DNA of 64,000 nucleotides from Candidatus Latescibacterota bacterium (GTDB lineage Bacteria; Latescibacterota; UBA2968; GCA-2709665), in NCBI GenBank assembly GCA_965208835.1, contig OZ242358.1, positions 1,056,001-1,120,000 on the forward strand, given 5' to 3'. Position numbers and translations under genes: made by a program. The notes under the pieces were generated by a model. That model saw only the letters and a program-made list of their open reading frames with translations, ran no database searches and was not told where the DNA came from. Positions within the stretch are counted from its first letter, which is position 1, and each line of letters begins with the position of its first letter. Below are positions 38,357-57,492 of the stretch, piece by piece.

Positions 38357-38395
38357 GGAACCTGTCAATAAGAATGAGACAACTCTTGCGTGAGT

Positions 38396-38560: not shown

Positions 38561-38600
38561 CGGTATGTGTCAAGTAAAGTGAGACACGTTTCCCGGAAAA

Positions 38601-39465: not shown

Positions 39466-39552
39466 GGCAATACCACCTTATAGGCTTTTGCCTTTGGGGT
39501 GGGGGGTCTGACCTACAAGGTTTTTTGGCTAATATTGTTCAACAGACTTCTC

Positions 39553-39789
39553 CTAATTTTTCATAACCTTTTTATTTTCAGCATATTGCATAACTGCGTA
39601 TATGACCATATTTCGCCACTTTGTTACGTTCCACCCTGCGATGAAGGAATCTAACCCTTTCGTGTTTGTCATTTGGTGAATTCTGGTGGAGATTTTACGT
39701 GGTTCTTCATGTTGTTTGAAGACTTCGTAATGACAGCGATGCCTAAAACCCCTGGAACCTGCTTGAAATTGCTGATCATCTAAAACCAC
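39553..39789 (-). CDS. Hypothetical cargo protein (78 aa)
   Basis: GTG start with AGGAGG RBS and an upstream hairpin. Confidence 0.55.
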   Translation of the reverse strand: MVLDDQQFQAGSRGFRHRCHYEVFKQHEEPRKISTRIHQMTNTKGLDSFIAGWNVTKWRNMVIYAVMQYAENKKVMKN

Positions 39790-40195
39790 GACGACCTCCT
39801 ATTGGTACGGGTGATTCAGCATGAGCCTGGAGTGGTGCCGTCAACACCACTCCGGGCATTTTTTGTTTCTTGAAATGTAACGAAACAGATCCTTAGTTTC
39901 AAGGGCCGTTTAAAATTCGGCTGTCTGTACTTGACGTTTCTTAATTCTACTCGTATATTATCACACACAGGGTAAACTGAAATAGAAGATACACCAAGTT
40001 GCTAAAGTTTCACAAAACCGCCCTTAGTCCCAGATGGGATTAAGGGCGGTTTTTCTATTTATGTCTCCCTGTAATCTATATAACTCTTTATTAATAAAGG
40101 AGTTGTCCGACCGGTAGCGATACGTTATATTAGTAACCTTAATTAATATGGCCGCCCGCTACCACGGCTTAGATTCACGCAGGGATGAGCGAGAA

Positions 40196-41083
40196 ATGGA
40201 TCTCTTGAAACTCATGAGCCGATTTTCTACACAACAGGAGTGTATCGCCTATTTGGAGAAGGTGCGTTTCAAAGGTGAGCCCTACTGTCCGCTCTGTGGC
40301 ACTGTGGGTGAGTGTGCCCGGAAGAAAGAGAATAAGTTAGTCGGTAGGTGGAATTGTTATGCTTGTGGAAGTTCCTTTAATGTCTTGTCGAAGACGATGT
40401 TTCAGAAGACACGTATTCCGTTGCCCAAGTGGTTTGCGGCCATTGTGTTGATGCTGAACGCGAAAAAGTCAATATCCTCGTACCAACTTGGCCGAGATAT
40501 CGGAGTCTTACCGATGACAGCGTTCCGGATGCAGCGGAAGATCCGGCAACAGATGCAGACCAGCGAGGGCTCACAACTATTAAAGGGTATCGTTGAAGTC
40601 GACGAAACGCATGTCGGCGGTGGGCCTCGCGGACACAGACGTTGGCGGGAGCGGTGGGAGAGTACGAAGGTGCCGGTATTAGGGTTTGTGGAACGAGCCG
40701 GTAGAGTTGTAATGGTGATAATAGACTACCCGAATGCCGATAATATCGTCCCTCTCGTGAATCAGCAAGTAAAGGCGAATTCCCGATTAATGACAGATCA
40801 GGCTTATCACTACAGGCAGGTTAAGGAGTCTTTGAAACATGAATCTGTAAATCACGGTATTACCTATGTTCGAGGTGAGGTCCACACCAATACGATCGAG
40901 GGTGTCTGGTCCTTATTGAAACGGGCGTTTAACGGAACTCATCACCACTACTCGAAGAAATGGATGCCATTGTATCTGGCCGAGGCGGCCTATAAGTACA
41001 ATGTACGGAAGATCAAGGACACCTGGGGTCAATTTATGAGAAAGGTGTTTCGGTATCTACTGCACTGGCCGGGATATACGTAA
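40196..41083 (+). CDS. IS1595-family transposase
   Basis: Zn ribbon CPLC..CYAC, HTH, VEVDET, LMTD, VNH, HTNTIEGVWSLLKR. Confidence 0.95.
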   Translation: MDLLKLMSRFSTQQECIAYLEKVRFKGEPYCPLCGTVGECARKKENKLVGRWNCYACGSSFNVLSKTMFQKTRIPLPKWFAAIVLMLNAKKSISSYQLGRDIGVLPMTAFRMQRKIRQQMQTSEGSQLLKGIVEVDETHVGGGPRGHRRWRERWESTKVPVLGFVERAGRVVMVIIDYPNADNIVPLVNQQVKANSRLMTDQAYHYRQVKESLKHESVNHGITYVRGEVHTNTIEGVWSLLKRAFNGTHHHYSKKWMPLYLAEAAYKYNVRKIKDTWGQFMRKVFRYLLHWPGYT

Positions 41084-41617
41084 TATCTCACTTAGGGGAT
41101 TAGCGGATTCTTTGACTGACACACCACGACGACTTGGGTGGGGAACTGGGATATGTTCAATTTCAAACCGATTACAGACTCTATGTACAACCCCACCCAG
41201 GGCAATAACGGGGCGTCCATCAAGTTCGTGTATTGTAATCTCTTGGAAAGATTCGCAAACGTGTTCAAATATGATGGTTTGGCTTTTGTCGGTTTCTGGC
41301 AATAGATGAAAGGCTTGTGTGATGTATACGTCGGCACGGTCCATTTCCGCACATTTCAATGCCTCATCTAGAACTTTATTAAAACGTGAGAAAATATCGT
41401 ATCCGCATTCTAATAGCAGGTCTTTTTTCTGAAGTACGTTTCTTGCGCTGTTCCAGTGATACCCGATTAATATGGGACCGGTTGTGCTATTCGAGATCTT
41501 CTGAATTGGTGAAACATAGTCTCCGTCTAAGCCGACTTCTGTCAATGTCTTGTATCCGAACCCTGGAATACTGAATGCTCTCCGACGCGCAATAATCTCC
41601 TTCCGCGACAATTGCAT
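41057..41617 (-). CDS. Uracil-DNA glycosylase-superfamily-like cargo protein, copy A
   Basis: VYITQA, VIALG and VPHPS motifs; close paralog at 52431. Confidence 0.65.
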   Translation of the reverse strand: MQLSRKEIIARRRAFSIPGFGYKTLTEVGLDGDYVSPIQKISNSTTGPILIGYHWNSARNVLQKKDLLLECGYDIFSRFNKVLDEALKCAEMDRADVYITQAFHLLPETDKSQTIIFEHVCESFQEITIHELDGRPVIALGGVVHRVCNRFEIEHIPVPHPSRRGVSVKESANPLSEILRISRPVQ

Positions 41618-41951
41618 AATGCAATCCTCCCCGCTTAGGTCCTGCGTTATTTGGTGACTGGTAGCGGGGTAAATTTAAATTACATCATGTATTTTGTCAA
41701 TAGGTTGAATCATGTGTTGTTGACTTGGGTCGGTGTATTTTTTATATTCGTAATTGCTACCAATCAGGCAGCCCCGAAGGTCGGGTAGCTTGCCGAATAC
41801 AATAGCCGACTCAAAGGGATGGGGTCGCTCCCTGTCCTCGGTGAATAAGCAAGACCTTCCCGCTTTCCTGCGTGATTGGTAGCACTGCCCGGCACCCATT
41901 TATGGGTGAAACAGTGCTACCATTTTTCTGTACACAGGGGAGAGGATTGTT

Positions 41952-42200
41952 ATGTTTTGGCTTAGACGAAATCGGACATTTAAATTAGAGGCGTCAGCGA
42001 CAGAATTAGCTTTATCTAATTTTTTAACTATTTACGATTTGCTCAGTATTCTTGATAAATCAACAGCTCGGGCAGTGGCGAAACGTATTAGACAACAAGC
42101 GGTAATGATAGATTCGATTGTTTTGAAAGCGAACCAAGAGTGTATAACCAAGACTGGGATTGAAACTATACGAAGGTTGTTATTGGAGGCATGTAAGTAG
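41952..42200 (+). CDS. Small helical cargo protein (82 aa)
   Basis: GAGG RBS; weak resemblance to 50355-50582 and 53413-53658. Confidence 0.6.
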   Translation: MFWLRRNRTFKLEASATELALSNFLTIYDLLSILDKSTARAVAKRIRQQAVMIDSIVLKANQECITKTGIETIRRLLLEACK

Positions 42201-42341
42201 TAACAAGGTAGATTATTTGATAGGAAAAGGGAGCGTAAAAAACAACCTTGTCTTTTAATTTCTTAATACTTACATTATAAAAGTTTTATAGGTCAGACCC
42301 CCCACCGCCCCAAAAGCAAAAGCCTATAAGGTAGTATTACC

Positions 42342-42962: not shown

Positions 42963-43040
42963 CGTCTGGCGCTCCTTTGCCCTCTCAATTGTTGCTTAAT
43001 TTAAAAAGGGAATATGTCTCATTAATATAGGCACAGAGGG

Positions 43041-43891
43041 ATCCCGTGATGCACGGAATCGGGTGTGAGCAAGCCCAAGCCGCTGTGACGGTGTTGGGTG
43101 TTGTACCAGGGAAAGAAGCCCTGGAAGTAGGTACGCGCTTCCTCCGGACCGGTGAAGCGCCCGGGGTATGACGGCGCGTATTTGAGTGTTTTGAATTGGC
43201 TTTCGGAATAGGGGTTGTCGTCCGATACACGAGGTCTGCTGTAGCTGGCCAGGATGTCGAGGTCGATCAGCATTTGCGAAAACGTCTTCGCCTTCATCGG
43301 TCCGCCGCGATCCTGGTGCAACGTCAGTTGTCCGGGTTGAATGCCCTGCTTCGTGGAGGCGTTGGTAATCAGGCGCTTGGCCAGCGTGGCGCTCTCCCTT
43401 TTGGCGACCATCCAGGCCACCACGTATCGCGAGAACAGATCCAGCACGACGTAGAGGGGATAGGACACCCATTTTCGGGGTCCCGGCAACCTTGTGATGT
43501 CCCACGTCCAGACCTGGTTGGGCGCACTGGCCACCAACCGGGGTGGTTCGAGACGTGGATGACGGCGCTGGTCGCGGCGCTCGCGCACTTCCTGGGCATC
43601 GTGAAGCAGCCGGTACATGGTGCGGGTCGAGCAGACATACCGTCCTTCCTCCAGCAGCACGGCATACACGGCTGCCGGTGCCCGGTCCACGAAGCGATCC
43701 TCGTGCAGGATGTCCAAGACCCGGAGACGCTCCTGTGGAGAAAGTGCACGGGGCGAAGACCGTCGCGACCGACCCGGACACGTTGGATGTGGCTTGCGAT
43801 GACGGTATACAGAGGCTCGCGCCACACCCAATGCCCGGCATGCTGAAGCCAACCCGACACTCGGGGCGAGATGTTCGGCCGCACGTATCAT
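43041..43891 (-). pseudogene. IS3-B OrfB transposase, 5' part
   Basis: WTWDIT, HQDRG, DNPYSE; cut by IS3-A. Confidence 0.9.
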
Positions 43892-44388
43892 ACGTCGTCG
43901 TCGGCCGGCGGGCGGTTCAGGGGGATGCCCAGGATCTCGGAGGCTTTTTTTTGGATCTCGAGGATGGTCTGCGCCTGTTCCAGTCGTCGCCGCAGCCGGG
44001 CGTTTTCCTTGCGCAGCTGCTCGTTCTCGACGGCGACCTCGTCACGACGCCGCCCCTTGGGTCCCCGCGGCTTGGATAGTGCCTTGAGCGTCCCCTCACG
44101 ACGCGCACGACGCCACTGGGTCAACTGCGAGGAATACAACCCCTCGCGACGCAGCAGCGCTCCGACTTCACCAGGGGCCCGGCACGCGTCCGCTTCTTCC
44201 AGGATGCGAAGCTTGTACCCGGCGGTGAACCGGCGACGCTTCGCACGCGCCGGCACCTCCGGATCCGGCCTCGTGGTTGTGGAGGTCCCGCGCGGGACCT
44301 CCACAACCAGAGTCCCCTTGCTGCCGTTGTCTCCAACATCGATTCTTGACCTCATCTCGTCCTCTCCTCTCCGCCCATTGTACGACAT
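43888..44388 (-). CDS. IS3-B OrfA
   Basis: RRRFTAGYKLRIL HTH; A8 run at 43945-52; start uncertain. Confidence 0.88.
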   Translation of the reverse strand: MSYNGRRGEDEMRSRIDVGDNGSKGTLVVEVPRGTSTTTRPDPEVPARAKRRRFTAGYKLRILEEADACRAPGEVGALLRREGLYSSQLTQWRRARREGTLKALSKPRGPKGRRRDEVAVENEQLRKENARLRRRLEQAQTILEIQKKASEILGIPLNRPPADDDV

Positions 44389-44433
44389 TAAACTCGGAGG
44401 GGGAGTTGTCTCACTCTATATTGGCACGTAGGG

Positions 44434-45226
44434 TGGCGTCGAGACACTCACTTACCCACCTCAGATCGAGACTCAAGAGGTCGGGGAAGAGATCGTTAGT
44501 ATGTTCGAGCAGATGAGTCTGATTCCCACGCTGTTTTTTGTTGACCCGTGGGGATACAAGGGGCTTTCGCTTCGGTTGGTGAATTCGGTGCTAAAGGACT
44601 GGGGCTGTGATTGTATTTTTTTCTTCAACTACAACCGAATCAATATGGGCCTGAATAACGAAGCGGTGCGGGAACATATGGATGCGTTATTTGGCGAAGA
44701 GAGAGCCGAAATCTTACGAGCGAGGCTTGACCAGCTAAGCCCGCGAGATCGTGAGTTGACCATTGTTGAGGAACTCTGCCAGGCAATTAGAGAATCAGGC
44801 CCGGGATTTGTGCTGCCGTTCAGGTTCAAGGACGATCACGGAACTCGAACAAGCCATCATCTGATCTTTGTCAGCAAGCACTCAAGGGGATACAAGATCA
44901 TGAAGGAAATCATGGCTAAAGAGTCGTCTGACAGGCAACAAGGCGTCGCGACGTTCGAATACAATCCCGCTGATCTCCGACAACCGTTTTTGTTTGGATA
45001 CGCACGTCCGCTTGACGACCTCGGTGACATGCTTCTAAAAGAATTCTCAGAAAAGACATTGAAAATGAAAGAGATATACGAACAGCATAACTTAAACACG
45101 CCCTACACTGCGAAGAACTATAAACAGGTATTGTTACAGTTGGAGCAAGAGAGGAAGATCGTCGCTGCCAAACATAGAAAAAATACGTTTGGCGATAACG
45201 TCGTCGTTACTTTTCCTCACCAATGA
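44434..45226 (+). pseudogene. tcmP: TcmP, 3' part
   Basis: GVETLTYPPQ...LFFVDPWGYKG; in frame with the 5' part after TSD removal. Confidence 0.85.
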
Positions 45227-45347
45227 CGGAAAACTCTGAACGGTGCGAGAGACAGTGAGGCACCCATCGCCGCCTTCACGACCCAAACCCATATCGGCGT
45301 TGTCCTAAGTTTCTACAGTTTTGGCAAGCGTAGACGATAGGAGGAAA

Positions 45348-45548
45348 ATGATGTTTGACATTGATGCGTTGCTCCAAAAAAACCCTTCTGCAAGAAGGGT
45401 TTTCGAGAAAAACCAGGCATTGCTATCGAAATGTCCACCAGCAAAAAAAGCGAAATTCCGACTTGGGGATCCGTACTCGGCTAGACGTCCGGTTGACGAT
45501 ATCCCTGTCAGCCAACCCAGGCCAAAGGCGACGTATTTCGGAAACTGA
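45348..45548 (+). CDS. Small hypothetical protein
   Basis: AGGAGG RBS before ATG at 45348. Confidence 0.5.
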   Translation: MMFDIDALLQKNPSARRVFEKNQALLSKCPPAKKAKFRLGDPYSARRPVDDIPVSQPRPKATYFGN

Positions 45549-45640
45549 AGTCCCTTGAGGGAACTACATAAAAGAAGCCGGGGCTGCCATAGCGCCGGCT
45601 GTCTTATTGGGGGTCTCACCGTCTATAGATCGAGGATGTG

Positions 45641-45841
45641 CTACGCTTCTAAAGCTTCTCGAATCGCTTTCTCCAAGCTTGGGCGAACTCTGTCCATGCT
45701 CCGACGGGCGGAGTCCTCTGCCATCTGCAGGATTTCCGCAAGCTCTTCGCCCGAAGGTTCAGGCGGAGTCACTTTATCACGCTTGGGACGCTTTGCCTCA
45801 CGTTTTCGCGCCGTCTTCGACAGATGTGATGTCAGCGCCAT
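45641..45841 (-). CDS. Small hypothetical protein
   Basis: AGGAGG RBS before ATG. Confidence 0.5.
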   Translation of the reverse strand: MALTSHLSKTARKREAKRPKRDKVTPPEPSGEELAEILQMAEDSARRSMDRVRPSLEKAIREALEA

Positions 45842-45917
45842 AGGGTGTCCTCCTATGTGAAGTTTCTATGGTCGGTTGAAAATGTGTGTCACTTTATATA
45901 GACAAGTAGAGTTATGG

Positions 45918-47243
45918 CTAAGGCCGCCATGAACGTGGTTGATGCCGGTAATTGATACCGGCGATCTTTTCTTCTTGGTCCTGCCAATAGTCGTGTACGA
46001 AAGCGACGATATGCACGGCATCCTCGACGACAATGTGGAGATGATTCTCGTAATACTTCGCGCGGGGGTATGTACGCCACCTGACGATTGGCCCCGGCAT
46101 TGACCACATGTTTTTATCACTGCGGAATACGTGGAGTTGGTCCGATGTCTCAAGCAGAATCCCAAAGTATGCCAGACCGGCCTTAATTACGTCGGCTTCT
46201 CTTATGAGCGGAACTGAACCAACAGAACCGAACGGAGATTCTCGGCGCGGTTGTTCGGCGTGATTCTTCGCCACTATGCCCGGGGGACTCGACGTACTGT
46301 CGGAAACCAGCAGCGCTTGAGGGGTCTCGGTTTCTGGCTCCGTGACGTTGTTCTGTACATACCGCATTATAGTCATTTCATTGCCGTGGATGCCGCAGAT
46401 CTTGTCTCCCGCGCCCCAACTCAATCCCGTCACGCTTCCAGTCTGAAGTATCTCGGATTCATCGATTTCGCGAACGAATTCCCGCCGGAGACGCCCCGAT
46501 CCGGTAGGATCGCGTTGCCAACGGAAGGCCAGCAGACACGATTCTCCAACCAGAGACGTGCTGTAGACACTGGCAAACACCCAGTCCGCATACGAAGAGT
46601 GTCGGCCCGTTAACTGGTTAACGCTGCCGTTTCTGTGGTTTGATTGTGGAAAGTACAGATTTCCACTGTTCGGAATATCATCGCGGGACCGGGGGTCGAA
46701 TTCGAAGAGCCCGTCGTCGCCAGCGGAAAGGGCGATTCCCCAGCGTGCCGCCGACGCCGAGAATGCTTGGGCGTCCCAATGCTTCTTCGGTCTGGAACTG
46801 ACTGGATAGCGCCGGTTATTTCTGTGTGCTGCGGCGGACCAGAATCCGTCATAGGTCACGAGATACAGGATATTGCTGAAGATCTCGGTATCTGTCGGAA
46901 GCTCCTTGACCGGATTGTCCTGTTCGCCATAAAGGGCTTCATTCAGTAATTCCGGAGTGATGACCGGAGTTTCCGCCCTGAGTCCCGCGAAATTCGCATT
47001 AAGAACCTTGCGATATCCGGGATCATCGAACACTGCGAGTACGTCAGGATGGTACAGCGAGTGTCCTCGCAACCAGGCCGCCTGGACTTCGAGAGACCGA
47101 CCGGCTTTTGGATATGCCAACTCGATCAGACTCTCCCAGTCGTACACGGAAAGGCGGCCATCATAATGCCAGAGATACAGGCGGCCACGATAGATCTGCA
47201 CATCCCAGAAATCCCCAGGAATCGAAAGCACTAAAGGTTGCAT
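45918..47243 (-). CDS. Hypothetical protein (441 aa, possibly beta-propeller-like)
   Basis: Long beta-rich ORF; start MQPL overlaps the upstream ORF end. Confidence 0.75.
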   Translation of the reverse strand: MQPLVLSIPGDFWDVQIYRGRLYLWHYDGRLSVYDWESLIELAYPKAGRSLEVQAAWLRGHSLYHPDVLAVFDDPGYRKVLNANFAGLRAETPVITPELLNEALYGEQDNPVKELPTDTEIFSNILYLVTYDGFWSAAAHRNNRRYPVSSRPKKHWDAQAFSASAARWGIALSAGDDGLFEFDPRSRDDIPNSGNLYFPQSNHRNGSVNQLTGRHSSYADWVFASVYSTSLVGESCLLAFRWQRDPTGSGRLRREFVREIDESEILQTGSVTGLSWGAGDKICGIHGNEMTIMRYVQNNVTEPETETPQALLVSDSTSSPPGIVAKNHAEQPRRESPFGSVGSVPLIREADVIKAGLAYFGILLETSDQLHVFRSDKNMWSMPGPIVRWRTYPRAKYYENHLHIVVEDAVHIVAFVHDYWQDQEEKIAGINYRHQPRSWRP

Positions 47244-47647
47244 CGCTTCCCTCCGGATATCTTCGTGATGTGGTGTTTCTCCAGGAGCCCTTGTGCGACC
47301 CAGACCTGAAGTACAGCGATAGGCGGACGATCCTTGGGTCGTCTCCGATAGTCCGCTGGATAGCCGTGCCAAATGGGCGTGGAACTGCCGTCAACAAACT
47401 TTCCGAAGAATAGTGATTCTCTGTAAACATTGATGCCGACAGTCCTGAGGCGACGACCACCAGACTCGGCCGCCCAGCAAGTCTGAGCTGGACTGCGCGC
47501 TGTTGGTAACGCAGCCTCAAATAAGGCTACTTCGTCATCGACCGGAATCGTCCACATGCAGCTCTCACGTGTCGGAAGTTTGCGGTGCTTTGGATGGATG
47601 AAATATCTGACATCTTTGCGGATACATATCGTATCACCAGGTTTCAT
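47231..47647 (-). CDS. Hypothetical protein with HPKH and WHGYP motifs
   Basis: 138 aa ORF coupled to the downstream gene. Confidence 0.7.
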   Translation of the reverse strand: MKPGDTICIRKDVRYFIHPKHRKLPTRESCMWTIPVDDEVALFEAALPTARSPAQTCWAAESGGRRLRTVGINVYRESLFFGKFVDGSSTPIWHGYPADYRRRPKDRPPIAVLQVWVAQGLLEKHHITKISGGKRCNL

Positions 47648-47842
47648 GGTAAGCGATTCTGCCTTTCGTCAATTTCTTCGTCGGTTCAACGACCGTTGAA
47701 TTTCACATTCATGACTGAAGGGTTGGGTAGTTATCTCGATCGAGAGGTTTTTTTGTTCCTACTTGAAATACGGTGAGTGTCTTTCGTAGTTGACCATGTC
47801 CGTCGTGCAGGGTGTTTCCCTCGATATTCCAGGCCGCAAGCG

Positions 47843-48077
47843 CTACATTGTATTACCGCAGCCCCTCCGCCAATCCTCGAAGTCGAGTTGGTTGCGAAGG
47901 AAGAGTTCGTATTGTTCGCCGTCGTCAGTGCTTGGATGGATGATTCCGTCCTCGCCATCGGTATCCAGGAATGCTTCCAATTCTCCTGGGTTAAGTACCG
48001 GAATTTTCATCACTGAGCGCCATCGTGCACGTGCTTCGTCGTAGACTTCGCCCCTGCGCAATTTCACGCTAAGATTG
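47843..48077 (-). pseudogene. AlbA/Schlafen-domain protein, 3' part
   Basis: Joins 56583 in frame (DDSVNL|SVKLRR) after TSD removal. Confidence 0.85.
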
Positions 48078-48227
48078 AGCACCTATATACTTGATTACCC
48101 GCGTGGTTTAAACGTAGGTGTTAGGGAACTAAGGGACAAGATTCATTTACTCAGTTTAAACTAAAAAACACAGCCCAGGGATATCCCTGGGCTTGTCTAA
48201 TGAAAAATAGAGAAATAAATTTATTGT

Positions 48228-48593
48228 TTATGCAGATTTAACCCTACGAGACAATTTATCTATATATGTACCCAAATGTGTGTTTAGAGATGAAAGTTCT
48301 TCAGAAATTTGTTTTAGGCACAAGAACATTTTTTCTTCAAGAGGGAGGGAACCTACACTCAACAATTCCTGAAAAAATATATCAATTTGGTGATCAGGAA
48401 TCACAATTGCCAATTCCCTTTGTTGAGCAGACTCAGATTTGTGTTCCAAGGTACCAGAACACAAAATTACCAAATCACGATTTGGTCCCAAAGCCAGCCG
48501 TACTTTTTGAAGGTTGGTCACCTGAAAGGATACGTGCGATACATCAAGCAATTGCAGAGTGTCGGCGTCATAGTCATCAGAAATAATAGACAT
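48228..48593 (-). CDS. Hypothetical cargo protein
   Basis: 121 aa ORF with RBS, directly downstream of 48611-49522. Confidence 0.65.
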   Translation of the reverse strand: MSIISDDYDADTLQLLDVSHVSFQVTNLQKVRLALGPNRDLVILCSGTLEHKSESAQQRELAIVIPDHQIDIFFQELLSVGSLPLEEKMFLCLKQISEELSSLNTHLGTYIDKLSRRVKSA

Positions 48594-48610
48594 TACTAGC
48601 TTCCTTATAT

Positions 48611-49522
48611 TCAGATAGGAAGTTCAGCTTGATCAGCGGCTGGTTCGTATTTAATTACTTTAACAATACCGTGTTGCGGATTTCCTCCTCTCCGAGTCTT
48701 ACCAATTATACGAACTATGGCCCTTAATTGATCTCCATTCCCACACTTAATCTCCCTATTTTTTATCTTTTCTCTAAACTCTTCATCAAGAATACGGAGT
48801 TGGTAACTCTGGCCTCGGTGTTGTATTCTCCAAGTATATTGATCTCTAAAAGCAGGACTAATCACCTCCATACCCCACATAAATTCATTCTTCGATTTAT
48901 TAATATCAGGAATATCCTTAATGTATTGATAATGTGTAATATCGCTTTTTTCAAATTTACAAGCAAATTGACCATTATCTGCTTTATTTATTTTAATTGA
49001 AGAGATATTTTCAGACTCAGTAATCTTAATAAAATCTTCAATATCAGTTCTTATTTTTTCATTTTCAAATATATCTTTTACCGCTGCTTCTGTTGTTATT
49101 ATCTCATCCTTAATATGAAATCTTGCATTACCTTCCGTATCTCGTGAAATTTTAGTTGGTTTTCGTGATCGCAATTCTGATAAAAGATTAAAAATTCCCT
49201 TGACTCTTTGTTGTGTTAAGTTATCGCGAACCAAATCTAATGCATTAACAGTCTTACTAGAAACTGCTTCTATTATTTCTGCACTATGGGACAATAATGA
49301 TCCTCCATATTCTACAAAGTTAATCAATAAATCAATTTCTAAACTACCTGGTCTAAATGCCTCAACTTCTAATTTGATCTTAATTTGTCTATTTGACACC
49401 ACACCCACAGTTTCTTGTATGATTGTATTCAATTTCATAAAAGCAGTTGCCACACAAAACACTTCTACAGAAGTGTTTTGTTTATTTTGTAATTCAAAAG
49501 CTATATTAAATCTCTTTTCCAT
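48611..49522 (-). CDS. Hypothetical cargo protein (possible C-terminal OB-fold)
   Basis: Long ORF in very AT-rich DNA; AFRPGSLEI and ILDEEF..GD.L motifs. Confidence 0.75.
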   Translation of the reverse strand: MEKRFNIAFELQNKQNTSVEVFCVATAFMKLNTIIQETVGVVSNRQIKIKLEVEAFRPGSLEIDLLINFVEYGGSLLSHSAEIIEAVSSKTVNALDLVRDNLTQQRVKGIFNLLSELRSRKPTKISRDTEGNARFHIKDEIITTEAAVKDIFENEKIRTDIEDFIKITESENISSIKINKADNGQFACKFEKSDITHYQYIKDIPDINKSKNEFMWGMEVISPAFRDQYTWRIQHRGQSYQLRILDEEFREKIKNREIKCGNGDQLRAIVRIIGKTRRGGNPQHGIVKVIKYEPAADQAELPI

Positions 49523-49607
49523 CAAACACTTTCCCAATAATTATCTTGCCAAAATCTATGTGTGGTCAATACCTACACCGACATTTTACAACACGCAAGA
49601 AGAAAAA

Positions 49608-49784
49608 TCAAGCCTTTTCATTACTATTCGACTGCAAAAACAACCACCCCACCTTTCCCCCGTGTTCCTTACAATTCGGAAACTGATCTCCCTTTACAAT
49701 CTTAGCTATATATCGACACGCACACCGAAAACCAAATACTCGATAATAACCGGTCACTTTACAAACTTCTCGTGAGAGTGGCAT
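49608..49784 (-). CDS. Small zinc-ribbon-like cargo protein (YjzC-like)
   Basis: TGYYR..C.C..KGDQFPNC..H..W pattern; GAGG RBS. Confidence 0.5.
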   Translation of the reverse strand: MPLSREVCKVTGYYRVFGFRCACRYIAKIVKGDQFPNCKEHGGKVGWLFLQSNSNEKA

Positions 49785-49792
49785 AAAAAACC

Positions 49793-49942
49793 TCACAATC
49801 GGCTAATCACCTCACGCAAATCTGGCAAGTTTTTATACACGTATATTCCAACACCAAGTATGAAAATGCAAACAAATAGTCGAAATATCCATATCAAAAT
49901 CTTGGAAATTTTAGAATCTGTCGTCCATTGATCCCGGCTCAT
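49793..49942 (-). CDS. Small single-pass membrane cargo protein
   Basis: One hydrophobic helix; AAGGGA RBS. Confidence 0.5.
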   Translation of the reverse strand: MSRDQWTTDSKISKILIWIFRLFVCIFILGVGIYVYKNLPDLREVISRL

Positions 49943-50354
49943 ATTTAATTCCCTTGTCGCTCTATTGGGACACCCGTATATTAAAAATACGGGAACCTTG
50001 AATGGAACAGTCATTCAAGATCCGTTCCCAATGATCACTGTTCGATCCGGGGAACCACTAACTTAAATCCTGCACGCTGTCACTCGTGAGGATAAAAGTT
50101 CGAGCCGTATCCGCCCAGGGTGCCAGCCCTGGGCTTTTTACTTGCCTTTTACTGGTTGAATAGCGAGTTTAAACTCGGGAGCGAGGCACCTAAGTTATTA
50201 CCTTCCTTCTTATATTCTGAAGAACCCATGTTCAACCGAATATTCCGCGGAAAAGAAGATTGGTAATAAGGACGTCCATGCCTCGCTCCAAACACAATAT
50301 ACTAAAACCAAGAGAGGAGTCAACCTATGTTAGCACTACACCATATCCACAGAA

Positions 50355-50582
50355 TTATTCGGGCTGGGCGAGCAAGACAAGCCCAGTCAGGAGCGTCAAG
50401 AATCGCTTTTCCTCTTCTTCTGATCCATCACTATGTAGTGGAAGCTGACCCATATGATTTCTTAACTGGTCGGCAATCTGAACTTTAGTTGCCGCATCTA
50501 AAACCTGAATAATGGAAATAACACCAAAATAGGACGCCGAAGCTATTTCCTCAACCGTGTAGATCTCTTCTGAATTTTCCAT
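50355..50582 (-). CDS. Small helical cargo protein (75 aa)
   Basis: GGAGG RBS preceded by three hairpins. Confidence 0.65.
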   Translation of the reverse strand: MENSEEIYTVEEIASASYFGVISIIQVLDAATKVQIADQLRNHMGQLPLHSDGSEEEEKRFLTLLTGLVLLAQPE

Positions 50583-50807
50583 AACCCCTCCAAAAAGATT
50601 TAACCCAAGTTCCCGTTAGGGTCTTGGGTTATTTTTATCGGCAGCCCCGAAACCGCCAGGTTCGAGGCTGCCTGTCCGAAACGCCCCCTGGTGAGTGGCA
50701 CCAGGTATTTAAAAGGTAGGTATTAAGAAATTAAAAGACAAGGTTGTTTTTATAATCATTAACTTGCGAAAGCGCCACCTATCAATTAAGTTAGGTGGCG
50801 CTTTTAT

Positions 50808-50881
50808 GGGGACGCTGGCAGGTGCCAGGGCAGCCGGACTTAGGATCTACTGCTGAGGGTTCGAGTCCCTACGTCTCCACA
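50808..50881 (+). ncRNA. tRNA-like RNA (anticodon position TAG)
   Basis: 7 bp acceptor GGGGACG/CGTCTCC, T-arm AGGG-TTCGAGT-CCCT, 7 nt loop CTTAGGA; non-canonical D-arm. Confidence 0.6.
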
Positions 50882-50939
50882 TTATTAATATACCATATCG
50901 ATTTAATCACTACAAGCTAATTTTTATACTATGAAATTC

Positions 50940-51146
50940 TCAATAGTCCCACTTACGCCAAAAATCACCAGACTTTTTGTATATAAAGAGAGTTAAGCCC
51001 AATCTGTAACAAATACGTTCCGCCTCCTCTTGGGCTTCCCGTTTAGTACGATATATGCTTATAGGAGCCACCTTTCCAGCGATTATATTTTCCCAGCGCC
51101 TATACTCTTGCGAATAACGCACTGACACACCTTGATTATCCAACAT
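50940..51146 (-). CDS. DUF2188-like small protein
   Basis: TKREAQEEA..LFIYKKSG pattern; AGGGAG RBS. Confidence 0.6.
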   Translation of the reverse strand: MLDNQGVSVRYSQEYRRWENIIAGKVAPISIYRTKREAQEEAERICYRLGLTLFIYKKSGDFWRKWDY

Positions 51147-51168
51147 ATTTGTCTCCCTTTTGTTTTTA

Positions 51169-52020
51169 CTATTCATAATGATGACAGTGTACGCACACAA
51201 TCAAAGGTTCACTCTTGTATTCACGGCCAGACCAATCTTTTGTTTTACCTACAATTTCGTACTTCCGATAGCGGTCTACCATAGGACCGACCAGTACTAC
51301 TTTTCCACTATTCATAGGAATAGTGTTCCAGGGGATATTTTCCTCACCGTCCACTAAAATAGTCCACTCTTTAATTCGTGGGCGTCGGCTCCACGTAATG
51401 ACTGCTTTAAGATGTGGACTTTCCCTTTCACTTTCCCAGCCCAAGCGGACCAGTATTGGGGGACCAGGAGTTTTGAATTCAGGGGTCACCACAGTATCGG
51501 CTTTTGCTGACGAATAGAACGGTAAGCCCGCCCCTTGATATACTGCATTAATCTCAATGATATATTCAATTCCAGCTAATAAAGGTTCAATTTTGAACGA
51601 GGTTGCGTTTCGCGACACATCGAAATACATAGTAAATTCATCTATTTTTGCTTTCAACGCTTTAGGGACAGGGTGGGGACTGTGAGTAATTTTATATTGT
51701 TTTAATATTCGTCCGGCAACAGCAGGTCTGTCGGGTGGTTCCCAGATCAATCTAACGTTACTAGGAGATACGGAATCTATCTGTGTGTTCCTTGGCGAAG
51801 GGTGGTTACGTTCTTTTTCACATTCGCCAGACCACGGTTGTCCAAATCGTTTAGCGAATTCTATGAAATCGTTAAAATCGTACTCAGTACCAAAATCCCG
51901 GGAGAATAAAATAAAGTCAGCAAAATCGACCTTTCGATCATCATTCAAATCCCAACAAATTGCAGAATTGTTGGCCTCACCTGAACTAATCAGTAAGAGG
52001 CAAGCCAAGACCCCCAACAT
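51169..52020 (-). CDS. Secreted protein with EF-hand/dockerin-like motif and fibronectin type III domain
   Basis: Signal peptide, DLNDDRKVDFADF, PSPRN..LIWEPP..Y..LLAGIEYII. Confidence 0.75.
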   Translation of the reverse strand: MLGVLACLLLISSGEANNSAICWDLNDDRKVDFADFILFSRDFGTEYDFNDFIEFAKRFGQPWSGECEKERNHPSPRNTQIDSVSPSNVRLIWEPPDRPAVAGRILKQYKITHSPHPVPKALKAKIDEFTMYFDVSRNATSFKIEPLLAGIEYIIEINAVYQGAGLPFYSSAKADTVVTPEFKTPGPPILVRLGWESERESPHLKAVITWSRRPRIKEWTILVDGEENIPWNTIPMNSGKVVLVGPMVDRYRKYEIVGKTKDWSGREYKSEPLIVCVHCHHYE

Positions 52021-52298
52021 ATCCGTCCCCCTGTGGCCCTTGCAGAGCCAAAATGAAAAACGGACCCTTCCCAGACGACAGGAAAGATCCGTTTTGTGTT
52101 AAGGCTTACCGACATCCCCTCCTGTCGCCCTTGCAGAGCGATGCATCTTCAGCTAACTAAAAGGTGTCGGGCCTTGCAAGCATCACAGGAGGGTGAGCCG
52201 TGCCTATTCCCTGGGAGTTCAGGTATTATATTCAGCACGAAACCCGACATAAATCGGTCCCTCCGGATACTTGCGCTGAACAAGTTACAGAAACAAAC

Positions 52299-52327
52299 TT
52301 GACAACGCAACCAAAATTAAGTATGGT
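52299..52327 (+). promoter_or_regulatory. Sigma70-like promoter of UDG-like copy B
   Basis: TTGACA-17-TATGGT. Confidence 0.6.
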
Positions 52328-52430
52328 TTTTGAAATACAAGGTTTGCAAGACCTTAGAGATTAATATAATTGAAAGCACACAAAAGGCGTGCGCTTTCAA
52401 TTATACCATTCCATTTCTCAGGAGGGAGAA

Positions 52431-52985
52431 ATGAAACGACAGGATATTATTAAACGTCGGAGGCAATTCAAGATTCGGGGATTCGGATACAAGACATTGA
52501 CAGAAGTCGGGTTAGACGGAGACTATGTTTCACCGATACAAAAAATCTCGAATAGCGCCACCGGTCCCATATTAATCGGGAAACATTGGAACAGTGCCAA
52601 AAACGCACTACAGAAAAAAGACCTGCTGTTAGAATTCGGGTACGATGTCTTCTCACGTTTTAATAAAGTTCTGGATGCGGCATTGAAATGTGCGGATATG
52701 AACCGTGCAGACGTATACATCACACAAGCCTTTCATCTACTACCTGGAACCGATAAAGGCCAATCCATCAAACCTAAACATATTTATCAATCTTTTCGAG
52801 AAATCACAATACATGAACTTGACGGACGTCCCGTTATTGCAATGGGTGGTACTGCACAAAAGGCTTGTAATCGCTTCAGTATTGAATATATTCCAGTTCC
52901 CCACCCGAGTCATCGTACAATGTCGATAGAAAACCGTGTTATCGCATTACGAAATGCATTATATAAATCTCGGCAAATATCATAG
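52431..52985 (+). CDS. Uracil-DNA glycosylase-superfamily-like cargo protein, copy B
   Basis: Roughly 70% identical by eye to 41057-41617. Confidence 0.65.
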   Translation: MKRQDIIKRRRQFKIRGFGYKTLTEVGLDGDYVSPIQKISNSATGPILIGKHWNSAKNALQKKDLLLEFGYDVFSRFNKVLDAALKCADMNRADVYITQAFHLLPGTDKGQSIKPKHIYQSFREITIHELDGRPVIAMGGTAQKACNRFSIEYIPVPHPSHRTMSIENRVIALRNALYKSRQIS

Positions 52986-53143
52986 ATACCGAAATACTTT
53001 TCTTGTAAAGTAACTCCAAACACCATTAATTTCTCCCGAAAAGATTCGTCTTCCCTCTCCCCCAGGAAGGCGAATCTTTTTTATTGACTTTTATAGCTTT
53101 CTTGTCTACAATCCCCAAACACCCTAAACCGTGGAGGTAACTT

Positions 53144-53359
53144 ATGTTTTCATTGTTCAAGTGGTATTGTTGCCGATACATGCTCAGGGTAGTTTGCGTT
53201 GATTGCAGTTACGGAGATTGCAAAGCCACAATTTTCCATGTCTGTCAGGACAAGAAATACAGACCCAACCGGCCAGGCATGGGATGCGAAAAGGAGGCGT
53301 GTCTCAACGCTCGCAGAAAACACGGTATTCCTAAGACCTTACATAAAATCTACTCATAA
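53144..53359 (+). CDS. Small Cys-rich cargo protein
   Basis: TTGACT-17-TACAAT promoter at 53084-53112, GGAGG RBS, downstream hairpin. Confidence 0.55.
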   Translation: MFSLFKWYCCRYMLRVVCVDCSYGDCKATIFHVCQDKKYRPNRPGMGCEKEACLNARRKHGIPKTLHKIYS

Positions 53360-53412
53360 CAAAAGCCCGGAACAGTTGTTCCGGGCATTATTTCTTAAAA
53401 GGAGGATTTTCA

Positions 53413-53658
53413 ATGTCTAAAGAAAATTGGTCTATAGAAGACTTAGTATTTGGAACTCATGACATGTTTATTGCGCTACTAGAGATTCTTGAGGAACCTG
53501 TAAAAACTGATTTTCGTCTGCGTGTGCTTGCTCGGGCTCAGCGCCTACGTCATAGTGCAGATTTTGAAGTACGGTTAGAACATAGGCAATCTTTGATTCA
53601 TACGGCTGAGCTACTTGAAGACTTTTCGGAATACTTACTGCGTCGTGAGAGCTCATAA
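53413..53658 (+). CDS. Small helical cargo protein (81 aa)
   Basis: AAAGGAGG RBS preceded by a hairpin. Confidence 0.7.
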   Translation: MSKENWSIEDLVFGTHDMFIALLEILEEPVKTDFRLRVLARAQRLRHSADFEVRLEHRQSLIHTAELLEDFSEYLLRRESS

Positions 53659-53686
53659 TAATTCTCCCTATAATAAGATATATCTT

Positions 53687-54142
53687 TCAACTCCCATTCC
53701 GTTCAAACACTACAACAATAAGAACTGTCTCCAAACTGTTATTCAGCATCTGTTGAATCTCGCTTATATCCTCACCAGCACTCCGCATATTTTCTATAAA
53801 ATAGACACCTGTCATCATAAGGTTTAATTTTGAATCCGAAACCTCAAAAGACCACACAAACTTATTCCCGCTGGGCTGCGTCATCGTCAACTTGTTATTC
53901 TCTGTTGTCCAGGTTCCCTTGTCTCCAACATTATCCTCCCAACTCCCATCTTCTCGAAACTCCACACTACGCAAATTGTCAAAAAATCCCAACGCAATAT
54001 CGGTCCCGCCAAAGATCGCCTCGAATCCCGGAAATCTAGTTTCAGATAGAACCCACTTCCCAACAAGAGGGTCTACAGGTTCAACGGCTTTATCTTTACA
54101 ACCGATCAGCAACAAGACAATAATCAATAGTGTGTGTCTCAT
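53687..54142 (-). CDS. Lipocalin-like lipoprotein
   Basis: Lipobox LIGC, LVGKWVL, GTW. Confidence 0.7.
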   Translation of the reverse strand: MRHTLLIIVLLLIGCKDKAVEPVDPLVGKWVLSETRFPGFEAIFGGTDIALGFFDNLRSVEFREDGSWEDNVGDKGTWTTENNKLTMTQPSGNKFVWSFEVSDSKLNLMMTGVYFIENMRSAGEDISEIQQMLNNSLETVLIVVVFERNGS

Positions 54143-54375
54143 CACTCAACCCCCTTTTTTGTGCCACAATACACGGAATTCTCCGCCCAATCTTCATATT
54201 TAGTGCTGATACGTGATCGTGGGCTGTGGGTTCTACAAATACGATTCCACGGCCCTTCCGATTTAAACATTTCACCACACTTGAGACAGCGACGTTTTTT
54301 CCGTGTCGAAGCATCCCCCCTGCACAGATCGTTATAGTGAGGAACACTTTTGGAACTTTGATTATTTCTTCTCAT
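54142..54375 (-). CDS. Small zinc-finger protein
   Basis: RRCLKCGEMFKSEGPWNRIC; stop overlaps the next start (TGATG). Confidence 0.6.
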   Translation of the reverse strand: MRRNNQSSKSVPHYNDLCRGDASTRKKRRCLKCGEMFKSEGPWNRICRTHSPRSRISTKYEDWAENSVYCGTKKGVE

Positions 54376-54508
54376 CTGTTGTCTTATCTCTTTTCTTTTT
54401 CGTCTTTGGAGCACTATTCGCCGCAAATGGTCGACGCTGTTTTAAGATCGCTCGACCAACCTCTTCCGGCGTGAGATCGGTTTTGAATACTTCGTCCTTT
54501 TTCTTCAT
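54362..54508 (-). CDS. Small basic protein coupled to the transposase
   Basis: Start overlaps the transposase stop (ATGA); TPEEVGRAILK. Confidence 0.55.
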   Translation of the reverse strand: MKKKDEVFKTDLTPEEVGRAILKQRRPFAANSAPKTKKKRDKTTDEKK

Positions 54509-55416
54509 GCTATCAGCTCCTGGTATTGGAGTCGTTGACCTCGCATCCCCTGGGCTATCGTCTTCATGAATCCGTAAACGCCCAGGGGTCGCGCATTGTG
54601 TCGGGCTGTGAACTCCCTCACGTATAGCCAAAGGTGTTTCGGACTCATTACGTGATACGTTCCCATATACCCGCGCTTGAACAGGCTCCAGAAGTTTTCT
54701 AACGAATTGGTATGGACATCCCCCTTAACATACTGCTTTGCGCTGTGTTTGACAAATTCGTGATAATAGACTCCTGTTAGCATCTTATATGCGTTATGCT
54801 CATCGCTGTAAACCTGCATATCCCTGTAGACCCATTCGTAAACTGGTTCGCACAAAGTATCATGACTCATATCGTCTAAGACCTGTGTCCTGATTTTCTT
54901 CGTACCTCTTTCATAGACACCGATCACAGGGACTTTCTCAGCCCATCCCCTCTTGAATTTCTGGCCACTGACCCGATGTTTATTCGATTTCTTACCACCC
55001 ACAAAGGTTTCGTCTACCTCAACTGTGCCCAAGAATTTCCGCTTTAGGTCCAAACACGCGTGTCGTATTCGATGCCCTAAGTACCAAGCCGTTTTCTGTG
55101 TTATGTCCAGGTCTTTTGCCAACTGTGTCGAGGAAATCCCCTTGGGTCGAGATATTAAATATATGGCAAAAACCCACTTACGAAAAGACAAATGAGACCG
55201 GTGTAGCAGATTACCTGTCCTTACCGAAAAGTCCATCCGGCAACTGCGACATCTATACGGTAACGGCTTCCGAGTTGGTCGCGCCTGAATATCCTTGCTC
55301 CCGCAACCTGGGCAACAAACACCTTCCGGCCAAAGTAACTTTTCAAACCAAGCCTCCGCTGAAGCCTCGTCCGGGAACATCTCGTGCAATTTGAATATCG
55401 AAATTTCTTTTGACAC
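54505..55416 (-). CDS. IS1595-family transposase
   Basis: CPGC..CRSC, VEVDETFVGGK, YSDE, VKH, HTNSLENFWSLFKR. Confidence 0.95.
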   Translation of the reverse strand: MSKEISIFKLHEMFPDEASAEAWFEKLLWPEGVCCPGCGSKDIQARPTRKPLPYRCRSCRMDFSVRTGNLLHRSHLSFRKWVFAIYLISRPKGISSTQLAKDLDITQKTAWYLGHRIRHACLDLKRKFLGTVEVDETFVGGKKSNKHRVSGQKFKRGWAEKVPVIGVYERGTKKIRTQVLDDMSHDTLCEPVYEWVYRDMQVYSDEHNAYKMLTGVYYHEFVKHSAKQYVKGDVHTNSLENFWSLFKRGYMGTYHVMSPKHLWLYVREFTARHNARPLGVYGFMKTIAQGMRGQRLQYQELIA

Positions 55417-55474
55417 GGGAACCTCCTTTCGATATTATGTAGTAGAAAGGGCTTCGTCTGCAAGGAGGCTCGTC

Positions 55475-55576
55475 ATGCCAAAACCACGACGAAGAAAAAT
55501 AAGAAAACGTATTATTAAAATAATCCGAATTGGACCAACAACTATAACAATACGAGTTCCATTTATACGCCGATAG
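55475..55576 (+). CDS. 33 aa cationic peptide
   Basis: AAGGAGG RBS; MPKPRRRKIRKRIIKIIRIGPTTITIRVPFIRR; flanked by a 20 bp inverted repeat. Confidence 0.55.
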   Translation: MPKPRRRKIRKRIIKIIRIGPTTITIRVPFIRR

Positions 55577-55694
55577 TACCTATTTTGACGAAGCCCTTTC
55601 CACTACTTTATAGGGCGTGGCACGACTTATTACTGGCCCTAATAATATATATTAAGGAGTTCCAAAAGACAAGTTATTTTTTCGAGGAGGCAAA

Positions 55695-55973
55695 ATGTCT
55701 AATCTTAATAACAGCGATACCTTAAATATTCCTAATTGTTTTTCATTTATTGAAACACATGGTCATCCACTTACACAACGGGCTGCTCATAAATTTAAAA
55801 ACCATTTAAATACAAATATCGTTTCTATTCAATTTTGGTGGTATGATGCAAAAACAGTATCAGATAGAGCTATTTGTATTCGTGGCGCACTCCGTAGAAT
55901 TGTTAAAAATAATAGAGAAAAGGGGAGATGCAGTAACCAATTTAAGGCATTGTATCAAATCAAATATCAGTAA
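55695..55973 (+). CDS. Hypothetical cargo protein
   Basis: GAGGAGG RBS. Confidence 0.6.
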   Translation: MSNLNNSDTLNIPNCFSFIETHGHPLTQRAAHKFKNHLNTNIVSIQFWWYDAKTVSDRAICIRGALRRIVKNNREKGRCSNQFKALYQIKYQ

Positions 55974-55997
55974 ACGAAAAATCTCATAAGGAATAAA

Positions 55998-56204
55998 ATG
56001 CCCAACTATTACGTAAACCCAAACCCTCAACCAAATGGGGATCAAGAAGTACATAAATACGGATGTTCTTGGTTACAATTAGTTCGAAATCCTATATTTC
56101 TTGGTAATTGGGACAGTTGTTTTCCAGCCGTTAAGGAAGCAATATATCAAGGATATAATGCAAATGGTTGCGCTCATTGTTCGCGCCCCTGCCATACTCG
56201 ATAA
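55998..56204 (+). CDS. Small Cys/His-rich hypothetical protein
   Basis: YYVN...NGDxEVH..GC...LG...C...NGCxxC...CH pattern resembling small mobile-element proteins. Confidence 0.7.
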   Translation: MPNYYVNPNPQPNGDQEVHKYGCSWLQLVRNPIFLGNWDSCFPAVKEAIYQGYNANGCAHCSRPCHTR

Positions 56205-56455
56205 GCTCTTTCCCACTCACTTTCATTATCATATATTGTTATAATCCTACCATCCTCTAAGTCGATTCGGCTTAATATCTTTTTGTGACCACAACAACTA
56301 GCAATAGTAAAGACCCCACCTGCGTTGAGTGCCGCCACTATCTGATGTATGCAACGGTCAATGCATTGAACACGACCTTTAAGTGGCATACATACCTGAT
56401 TCCTATAAGTCTTCTTCCCACCAGGTAAATCGCAAAATTCACAACCTCCTGACAT
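56174..56455 (-). CDS. Small phage-type protein with TxASCCGH motif
   Basis: IDxCI..IVAALN..G..TIASCCGH; GGGGAG RBS. Confidence 0.65.
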   Translation of the reverse strand: MSGGCEFCDLPGGKKTYRNQVCMPLKGRVQCIDRCIHQIVAALNAGGVFTIASCCGHKKILSRIDLEDGRIITIYDNESEWERAYRVWQGREQ

Positions 56456-56582
56456 AAATAGACTCCCCTACCTTCCCATAACCCCTTTATTTACAACAGT
56501 TAAGCCAATTTTTATGGGATAAAAATACCTAAACCGTTGTAAATAAAGGGTTTATGGGCGGGTAATTAAGTATATGGGTGCC

Positions 56583-57492
56583 TAAGATTGACAGAATCAT
56601 CGCCGCTGCTCGAGGCATGGAATCTTTGGACAGCGTAGATTATGCTGTTACCCTCGTAGAAATAGAACCGTCCCGGGCCACGCGGCTCCCAATCTGGCGC
56701 CACCATTGACTTCTTGCGGTCGTCAAAGCCGACGTAACGAATACGGCGCAACAGGGTCTGGTGAAAACGGAGTTCATAGTATCCCGCATAATTATTCTTG
56801 GATACTAATTCTCCGCGGGTCCATTCCTCGTCACGAGCTATATGATCTTCCGCGTCAGTGATTCTTATCGTAAACTCAGGAAATGTTGTGTGGTAGTAGC
56901 TCGCATTTACGCCGAAACCGGGAATTGGTGACCAGTAATCCGGTTCACTCAAATACCGTTGTATTCTTTCGAGCGGTGGTATATCCAAGCCGAAGCGCTC
57001 CCGCCACATTCGTTCAATCTCGTGGGCTTGCGTAGCTTCATCTACAGGAGTGTTTGTGTCGCAAACGCGCGAATATATGTGGTGAGCGCGGATTTTTCCA
57101 AAACGTTGTGTAAGATAGTAGGGCTTATGGGGAGCATCCTCAATTACCAAAACATCCAGTAGTTCATCCCCAAATTCGATTTCTTTCAGGTAAAATTCAG
57201 GGACCCTCGATTGAAAGAACTTTCTCGCGTTGTCGCGGAATAGACCCGCTATGTCTGCCTGTGTTCTTCGGCTTGGATCTTCGTTTATCGGATGGACAGA
57301 ATAGTCGCTGTCGTCAATCCCATAAATCAAGAATCTATCACCATCGTGGTTGGCGTTCGCAAGGCACAGGACATCGTGAACAAGATCAGCTTTGTTTTCA
57401 TGATGTTCACGTTTGAAGTCCCAATATGTACCCTCGGCTCTTCGACTTATGAGGGTTGAGATGGTCGTGTGAAACCCGCCCTCGATAGTCAT
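56583..57492 (-). pseudogene. AlbA_2/Schlafen-domain protein, 5' part (interrupted)
   Basis: EGTYWDFK..DVLCLAN..FLIYGIDD. Confidence 0.85.

Follow-up and report, generated by a model that had tools for sequence, protein, structure and literature searches.

A UDG-like passenger gene of one IS1595-family transposon was probably overwritten from an unrelated transposon of the same family

Results

Two unrelated IS1595-family transposons carry a UDG-like gene

The window analysed here is a 64,000-nucleotide stretch of a Candidatus Latescibacterota genome (assembly GCA_965208835.1, contig OZ242358.1, positions 1,056,001 to 1,120,000 of the forward strand; genome G000 below), and it contains two cargo-carrying transposons of the IS1595 family (transporter insertion sequences, tIS). 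Element 1 (2876 bp, 39466..42341) lies inside an IS3-type orfB: its terminal inverted repeats are imperfect (39466-39518 and 42286-42341, 87.5% over 56 nt), it is flanked by the 8-bp target duplication GCTGCTTT (39458-39465 and 42342-42349), and excising it together with one copy of the duplication restores a 362-aa open frame of the interrupted IS3 gene. Its transposase gene, tnp1 (40148..41083, plus strand), recognized by Pfam and by its translation, ends in ...IKDTWGQFMRKVFRYLLHWPGYT and matches PF12762 (5.8e-37, 127.5 bits) and PF12760 (2.7e-7, 30.9 bits), both above the cut-offs. The passenger UDG1, a UDG-like gene (41057..41617, minus strand), converges on tnp1, as an earlier note on this DNA had pointed out, and the two genes overlap by 27 nt. 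Element 1 is the innermost part of an insertion nest (38036-45226) in which a gene now split into 38036-38371 and 44501-45226 received an IS3-type element, which received a second IS3-type element, which in turn received element 1; a 264-aa gene at 37229-38023 adjoins the split gene.

Element 2 (48078..56582) measures 8505 bp, which we take to be large for the IS1595 family. A search for repeats or duplications close to its sole transposase gene, tnp2 (51900-52450 against 55400-56100, and the matching regions of the related genomes G014 and G002), found none; the true ends, 48078 and 56582, were revealed by comparison with further contigs of another related genome, G006. Compared over their first 27 positions, these ends (AGCACCTATATACTTGATTACCCGC... 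and, as the reverse complement, GGCACCCATATACTTAATTACCCGC...) agree at 22, from which we read the terminal repeat as about 25 bp; they are flanked by the 8-bp duplication TAAGATTG (48070-48077 and 56583-56590). G006 holds the corresponding empty site: in its contig C49, the sequence before window position 48078 is joined directly to that after 56582, with a single copy of TAAGATTG. At another site G006 has its own copy, which carries the same framework and the same ends and has a different 8-bp duplication (CAAACTAT), and a 3.2-kb version with the same ends as the window copy lies in G014 between copies of TAATATAA; this version lacks a UDG gene. Element 2 is a real, mobile transposon, and it contains the second UDG-like gene, UDG2 (52431..52985, plus strand), along with fn3, DUF2188 and lipocalin-like genes. 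tnp2 (54505..55416, minus strand; PF12762 3.3e-37, 128.3 bits; PF12760 2.1e-7, 31.2 bits; above cut-offs) lies 1.5 kb from UDG2, and its product is 100% identical to that of the G006 copy and 80.5% identical to that of G014. The starting observation of the earlier note, that two elements with different transposases and terminal repeats share a UDG-like gene, is borne out: the UDG1 and UDG2 proteins are 72% identical, tnp1 and tnp2 only 31%, and the terminal repeats of the two elements differ.

Between G000 and G006, the shared parts of element 2 are 93-98.7% identical and the chromosomal flanks (45346-48078 and 56582-57467, compared with contig C49) 84-90%, meaning that element 2 is younger than the split of the two genomes; judged from these identities, it has moved between the two lineages. 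The two copies are further distinguished by four replaced segments (the UDG patch described below, 48110-49582, 53394-54138 and 55697-56469) and by six insertions or deletions besides, showing that cargo turnover is general in element 2.

An orphan transposase tail adjoins the UDG2 stop codon

Translation of the minus strand of 52940-53300 gives an open frame that ends in ...GEINGVWSYFTRKVFRYL, and the last part of this frame, INGVWSYFTRKVFRYL (52980..53030, minus strand), is an orphan transposase tail of 16 sense codons (53030-52983) and a stop codon (52982-52980) adjoining the stop codon of UDG2. The last sense codon of the tail, CTA (Leu), is the complement of the UDG2 stop TAG (52983-52985), and the geometry of element 1 is the same: the UDG1 stop (41057-41059) complements the Leu codon in the terminal ...RKVFRYL of tnp1. 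Because the comparison is anchored at the UDG stop codon, the alignment was set beforehand and sliding was excluded; at this fixed register, 32 of 48 nt are identical to the 3' end of the element-1 transposase gene (binomial P ~3e-8), and no other 48-mer on either strand of the 64-kb window matches the element-1 tail better than 29/48. The earlier note had claimed exactly such a tail in this geometry, and the claim holds at the protein level as well, since the 36-aa open frame matches tnp1 by BLASTP with 10/17 identities (E 2e-5). An independent repeat search recovered the same relation at the nucleotide level (41024-41084 against 52958-53018, 72%), so that similarity does not stop at the UDG stop codon; aligned to each other, the UDG1 and UDG2 regions are alike through this codon and into the transposase tail.

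Over 52986-53031, the tail is 67.4% identical in nucleotides to each of two element-1-type tails, that of element 1 and that of a second unit found in the related genome G011, and its position relative to the UDG stop is identical in the three elements. Relatives of tnp1 at about 50% identity that are not accompanied by a UDG gene end in ...F..F..GCFA at the homologous position; the tail is thus native transposase sequence and not sequence of the UDG gene. Its dN/dS, computed on very few sites, is 0.26-0.39, which suggests that most of its divergence arose in the donor lineage, when it still belonged to a functional transposase.

A sister copy delimits the imported patch

Despite its identical transposase, the G006 copy of element 2 carries a UDG-like gene that is only 46% identical to UDG2. 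Along element 2, G000 and G006 pass from alike to unlike at 52472/52473 and back to alike at 53031/53034, delimiting an imported patch of 559 bp (52473..53031, plus strand) that comprises most of UDG2 and the donor transposase tail. We scored informative sites on a four-way alignment of the window, G006, G011 and element 1: 75 resident-type sites in a row occupy 52294-52440, a mixed zone with 7 resident-type and 3 donor-type sites follows at 52442-52472, sites at 52473-53030 are mostly donor-type, and 31 sites from 53034 on are again resident-type. Identities to the window follow the same partition, with G006, G011 and element 1 at 93.9%, 29% and 40% over 52294-52472, at 50.3%, 86.2% and 79.3% over 52473-52985, at 26%, 67% and 67% over the tail (52986-53031), and at 96.6%, 36% and 25% over 53032-53120. 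The patch is of element-1-type origin.

UDG2 is therefore chimeric by its informative sites: codons 1-14 are resident (G006-like) and the gene is donor-derived from about codon 15 to its end. This division is visible in the N-termini, which read MKRQDIIKRRRQFK in UDG2 and MKRQDIIKQRRQFK in G006, as against MQLSRKEIIARRRAF and MNLSRKELIARRRAF in the element-1 type. The resident part (52294..52472, plus strand) includes, besides these codons, a ribosome-binding site and two promoter-like sites, TTGACA-17-TATGGT and TTTGCA-16-TATAAT. Just past the patch, a resident terminator-like hairpin with 16-nt arms (94% complementary) and a 10-nt loop is followed by a T run (53039..53080, plus strand), within a stretch that is 98.1% identical to G006 (53034-53393).

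The junction sequences are not an assembly artefact, given that contigs from three sequencing runs of one sample (possibly the source sample) each span 51900-53500 with 0 differences. In contigs from a run of a different study (X5), the allele is of the G006 type and is joined to the surrounding sequence at precisely 52472 and 53034. Marking each junction with a slash, the left one lies in ...ATTCAAG/ATTC..., a short and imperfect match, and the right one in TAAT/(C)TTC(T)CCG, where about 7 of 10 nt match; both matches were judged on stand-in parents, the recipient being represented by G006 and the donor by G011 and element 1.

Phylogenies are incongruent and the donor appears to be an unsampled relative

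In the UDG tree, UDG2, UDG1 and the UDG of G011 form one clade (100/100) apart from the G006 allele, which sits on a long isolated branch (0.95). The transposase tree splits into two deep clades (100/100), one with tnp1 and its G011 relative, the other with tnp2 and its relatives from G006, G014, G003 and G002. The incongruence that the earlier note had predicted for an exchange is thus seen, as UDG2 groups with the tnp1-linked UDGs and tnp2 falls in the other deep transposase clade, both at 100/100.

The G011 locus is a second element-1-type unit, with a transposase 84% identical in amino acids to tnp1 and truncated at its 5' end; its C-terminus (...IKDTWSQFVGKVFRYLLYLPGYT / ...KVFRYLLYLPGYT) converges on a UDG 81% identical in amino acids to UDG2. 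At 79% nucleotide identity, element 1 of this window is by sequence comparison too diverged to be the donor. We searched for a UDG2-type gene next to a full transposase ending in INGVWSYFTRKVFRYL: a scan of a genome collection returned 5 loci (best 81%), two metagenome scans 0 and then 7 loci (42-46%), and a protein database 39 matches (best 81%), with three further proteins at 73, 71 and 66% (P0003, P0005 and P0006); among 61 related genomes, 14 have the UDG and G011 alone has the close tnp1 type. No donor with a matching tail was present in the collections searched, the best relatives being G011 (86% nt) and element 1 (79% nt), and we infer that the donor was an unsampled element-1-type relative. 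The element-2 copies differ by 1-7% in their shared parts, so that a recent event requires a donor lineage missing from every searched collection.

The passenger is predicted to have the fold of uracil-DNA glycosylases

UDG2 matches PF03167 at 30.9 bits, above the cut-off of 24.3, and UDG1 falls just under it (23.2 bits). Against TIGR00758, UDG1 scores 20.1 bits (cut-off 125.3) and UDG2 has no match; a profile search of PDB sequences with the UDG-like protein gave weak matches (E 0.05 and above), and NCBIfam and PADLOC (2023 version), searched with the UDG-like proteins and the small ORFs, gave nothing useful, with no match in PADLOC. The AlphaFold2 model of UDG2 (pLDDT 95.6, pTM 0.91) has the UDG alpha/beta fold and finds 42 PDB matches at E <= 0.001, of which all those listed belong to the UDG family (UdgX, family 4, SMUG, MUG). 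The best are UdgX and family-4 UDG (PDB 6ail and 1ui0; Foldseek probability 1.00, TM 0.5-0.6), a likeness to which the weak profile matches and an HPS motif read from the sequence near the C-terminus of UDG2 also contribute; identity to these proteins is only 11-19%. Family-4 UDG and UdgX need four cysteines for their [4Fe-4S] cluster. UDG2, in contrast, has only two, the four-cysteine site cannot form, and UDG2 is therefore not an iron-sulfur family-4 enzyme. A dN/dS of about 0.27 among three element-1-type UDGs, together with the confident structural model, indicates that the gene is intact. UDG2 is a putative DNA glycosylase gene, possibly one used in defence. In other genomes of the genus and family, relatives that are 44-47% identical do not adjoin IS1595 transposases; they adjoin Cas6b/Cas7/Cas5, type I and type III restriction subunits, Nmad3 and a WYL regulator, neighbourhoods which suggest, by analogy, that the UDG-like protein may be an anti-phage glycosylase.

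Other features of element 2 and further IS1595 elements

A 44-nt stretch of element 2 (50708..50751, plus strand) has a 93% complementary counterpart in element 1 at 42238-42281, inward of the right terminal repeat by 4 nt, and the order and orientation of this stretch relative to the UDG gene are the same in both elements. Of 15 genomes of the genus, only G000 (elements 1 and 2) and G006 (element 2) have its 33-nt core (at most 3 mismatches); the presence of the stretch in both element-2 copies suggests that the history of exchanges was more complicated. A 1185-nt cassette directly adjoins this stretch in G006 and holds a 337-aa ORF with weak EF-hand matches and, by eye, dockerin-like repeats. 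Outside the window, G000 has a 2568-bp IS1595 transposon in two copies that are 99.9% identical (5118790-5121357 and near 221000-223800), with a transposase about 50% identical to tnp1 and a 519-aa ORF that by eye is a putative DNA methyltransferase.

On the minus strand of 52118-52300, a motif of about 180 nt has a long conserved hairpin and weakly resembles Rfam sRNA-Xcc1, scoring 35.5 bits here and 34.1 in G002, both below the gathering score of 53. The motif lies 3' of tnp2-type transposase genes in G014, G002 and G003, homology starts at exactly 52118 in all four genomes, and it is 76-84% identical in nucleotides while the linked transposases are 46-80% identical in protein. With compensatory change in 7 of 32 predicted pairs (5 sequences), it may have a function in this transposon lineage, as an RNA or as a DNA site. 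A small insertion (55433-55612) just upstream of tnp2, with 26-nt terminal inverted repeats (88% complementary), is missing from the G006 and G014 copies and is probably a miniature element of the non-autonomous type. Directly after the tnp2 stop codon, G006 has another insertion, of 189 nt. The segment 53134-53369, also inside element 2, matches seven other places in six genomes of the genus, G000 included (66-69% nt over most of its length, 82-84% over two short pieces), and holds a 71-aa ORF with no family match.

A 75-nt tRNA-like sequence inside element 2 (50808-50882, plus strand) matches the Rfam tmRNA model (23 bits, E 7.5e-6) and is kept in the G006 copy; by eye, it has an acceptor stem GGGGACG/CGTCTCC with a G3:U70 pair (the alanine identity mark) and a T-loop TTCGAGT. 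Its fold z-score is only -1.49, and ARAGORN detected no tRNA in the window, 50808-50882 included. Two alternative descriptions of the region were abandoned: an island at a tmRNA gene (the real tmRNA of G000 lies at 5156295-5156654, far from the window), and an integron-like cassette array with the palindrome at 56458-56575 as an attC-like site (this palindrome contains the right terminal repeat of element 2).

Discussion

The locus is in our opinion best explained by a patch replacement of the resident UDG gene from an element-1-type donor, which we consider likely. It starts from two unrelated IS1595-family tIS that each carry a UDG-superfamily gene. Element 2 would first have borne its own divergent allele, of which the G006 copy preserves a version. 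On the way to the present genome, the matching part of the resident gene would then have given way to 559 bp from an element-1-type transposon, reaching from about codon 15 of the donor UDG, through its stop codon, and on over the final 16 codons of the donor transposase gene that converges on it. The left junction falls in frame inside both paralogous genes; at the right one, only a few bases short of the resident terminator, the donor transposase tail meets the resident 3' untranslated region. The product is an intact chimeric gene with resident promoter, ribosome-binding site, first 14 codons and terminator, plus a dead transposase tip. The exchange itself was presumably a recombination over a short patch, by either gene conversion or template switching, that used short imperfect matches, with an element-1-type copy present in the cell at that time as the presumable donor. 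The earlier note had reasoned that element 2 took its UDG module, with the tip of the transposase, from an element-1-type transposon; the patch, the trees and the tail support this, with refinements. In particular, the 5' region ahead of the import is not related to element 1, and the import joins it in frame at about codon 15, implying that a UDG-like gene was already resident in element 2, and the comparison supports a replacement of most of this paralogue rather than a first acquisition.

Several other histories could be envisaged. A complete element-1-type transposon might have inserted beside the resident UDG and decayed by two deletions, one between the 5' parts of the UDG paralogues and one removing transposase and terminal repeat, leaving the chimera and the tail. 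Origin and end product would be the same as in a patch replacement, insertion sequences nest readily here (element 1 in an IS3 in another IS3 inside a gene), and the element-1-like 44-nt stretch lies 1.7 kb upstream in element-1 order and orientation; however, three events would be needed instead of one, element 2 has no element-1-type terminal repeat or other element-1 sequence save the patch and these 44 nt, and the 44 nt are also in the G006 copy, which is without the patch. We regard such a nested insertion as improbable, and a reversed order of events, in which the ancestral element 2 already had the element-1-type UDG and tail and the G006 allele is a later replacement, as slightly more so. 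The latter would suit the long isolated branch of the G006 allele (0.95), and the element 2 of G014, being without a UDG, leaves the states unpolarised: as an outgroup, it is silent on which UDG state is older. Yet the in-frame start at about codon 15, behind a UDG N-terminus that is not of element 1, indicates that a UDG-like gene was there earlier, and the tail proves the element-1-type origin of the window allele in either order, so that reversing the polarity would alter the sequence of events and not the conclusion that cargo moved between element types.

With a tail of only 16 codons and a genome derived from a metagenome, one might suspect a fortuitous frame in the 3' untranslated region or a mis-join from another strain. 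Either is very improbable: chance is opposed by the match at fixed alignment (32/48 nt, P 3e-8, no other 48-mer exceeding 29/48), by the BLASTP result (E 2e-5) and by the constant position of the tail relative to the UDG stop in three elements, and an assembly chimera by the contigs of three runs that bridge both junctions with 0 differences, even if these runs are of one sample that may be the source. Patch replacement therefore stays our preferred explanation, and the short imperfect matches at both junctions argue for a microhomology-guided short-patch replacement over a classical homologous exchange.

Homology-facilitated illegitimate recombination and gene conversion over short patches between paralogues likewise exchange resident DNA for a foreign segment, with one junction placed in related sequence, the other at a handful of identical bases, and part of the gene next door in the donor brought along. 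The present case differs in that both junctions lie in weakly matching sequence (about 7/10 nt at the right one, on stand-in parents), and in that both partners are transposon passenger genes. The transposons themselves are of an established kind, the transporter IS of the IS1595 family with passenger genes (Siguier, Gagnevin and Chandler 2009, as cited in PMC3129680). Elements 1 and 2 share the features of this kind: each encodes one DDE transposase, whose N-terminal part is a zinc ribbon, and each has terminal inverted repeats that enclose passengers unrelated to transposition and are flanked by an 8-bp target duplication. For ISApl4, another IS1595 member, 8-nt direct repeats are likewise listed (PMC12561309). 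What sets the present tIS apart is a passenger of the UDG superfamily, and a passenger allele overwritten from a second, unrelated tIS, leaving a transposase scar. In the limited literature searched, we found no report of a UDG-like IS1595 passenger, nor of one tIS overwriting the passenger of another with such a scar.

As for the function of the passenger, the antiviral DNA glycosylase Brig1 (Hossain et al. 2024, PMC11078745) offers a lead: compared by description, both are small UDG-superfamily proteins, and the 44-47% relatives of the UDG-like protein have a defence-gene context. PADLOC (2023 version), on the other hand, gave no match for the UDG-like protein. A bolder and rather doubtful reading is that the IS1595 tIS of this lineage could serve as shuttles and mutual reservoirs for defence-type glycosylase alleles, with unrelated transposons that share a cell overwriting one another's alleles by short-patch recombination at microhomologies. 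If so, the specificity of the carried glycosylase could be swapped without loss of the transposon's promoter, terminator or mobility, and the four replaced segments of element 2, between copies that are 93-98.7% identical, would be traces of the same process.

Transporter IS and recombination between paralogues are both known already, so the value of this locus is that of a well-resolved case and not of a new principle. It offers a clear, datable example of how cargo-carrying insertion sequences renew their load: a paralogue that the element already carried received the allele of a different transposon, and no new gene was captured beside the element. The hitch-hiking transposase tip gives the direction of transfer, which is rarely available from comparative data, and a sister copy with the old allele fixes both breakpoints to a few bases. 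Should the UDG-like protein prove to be an anti-phage glycosylase, transposons would here be seen to shuffle defence alleles among themselves.
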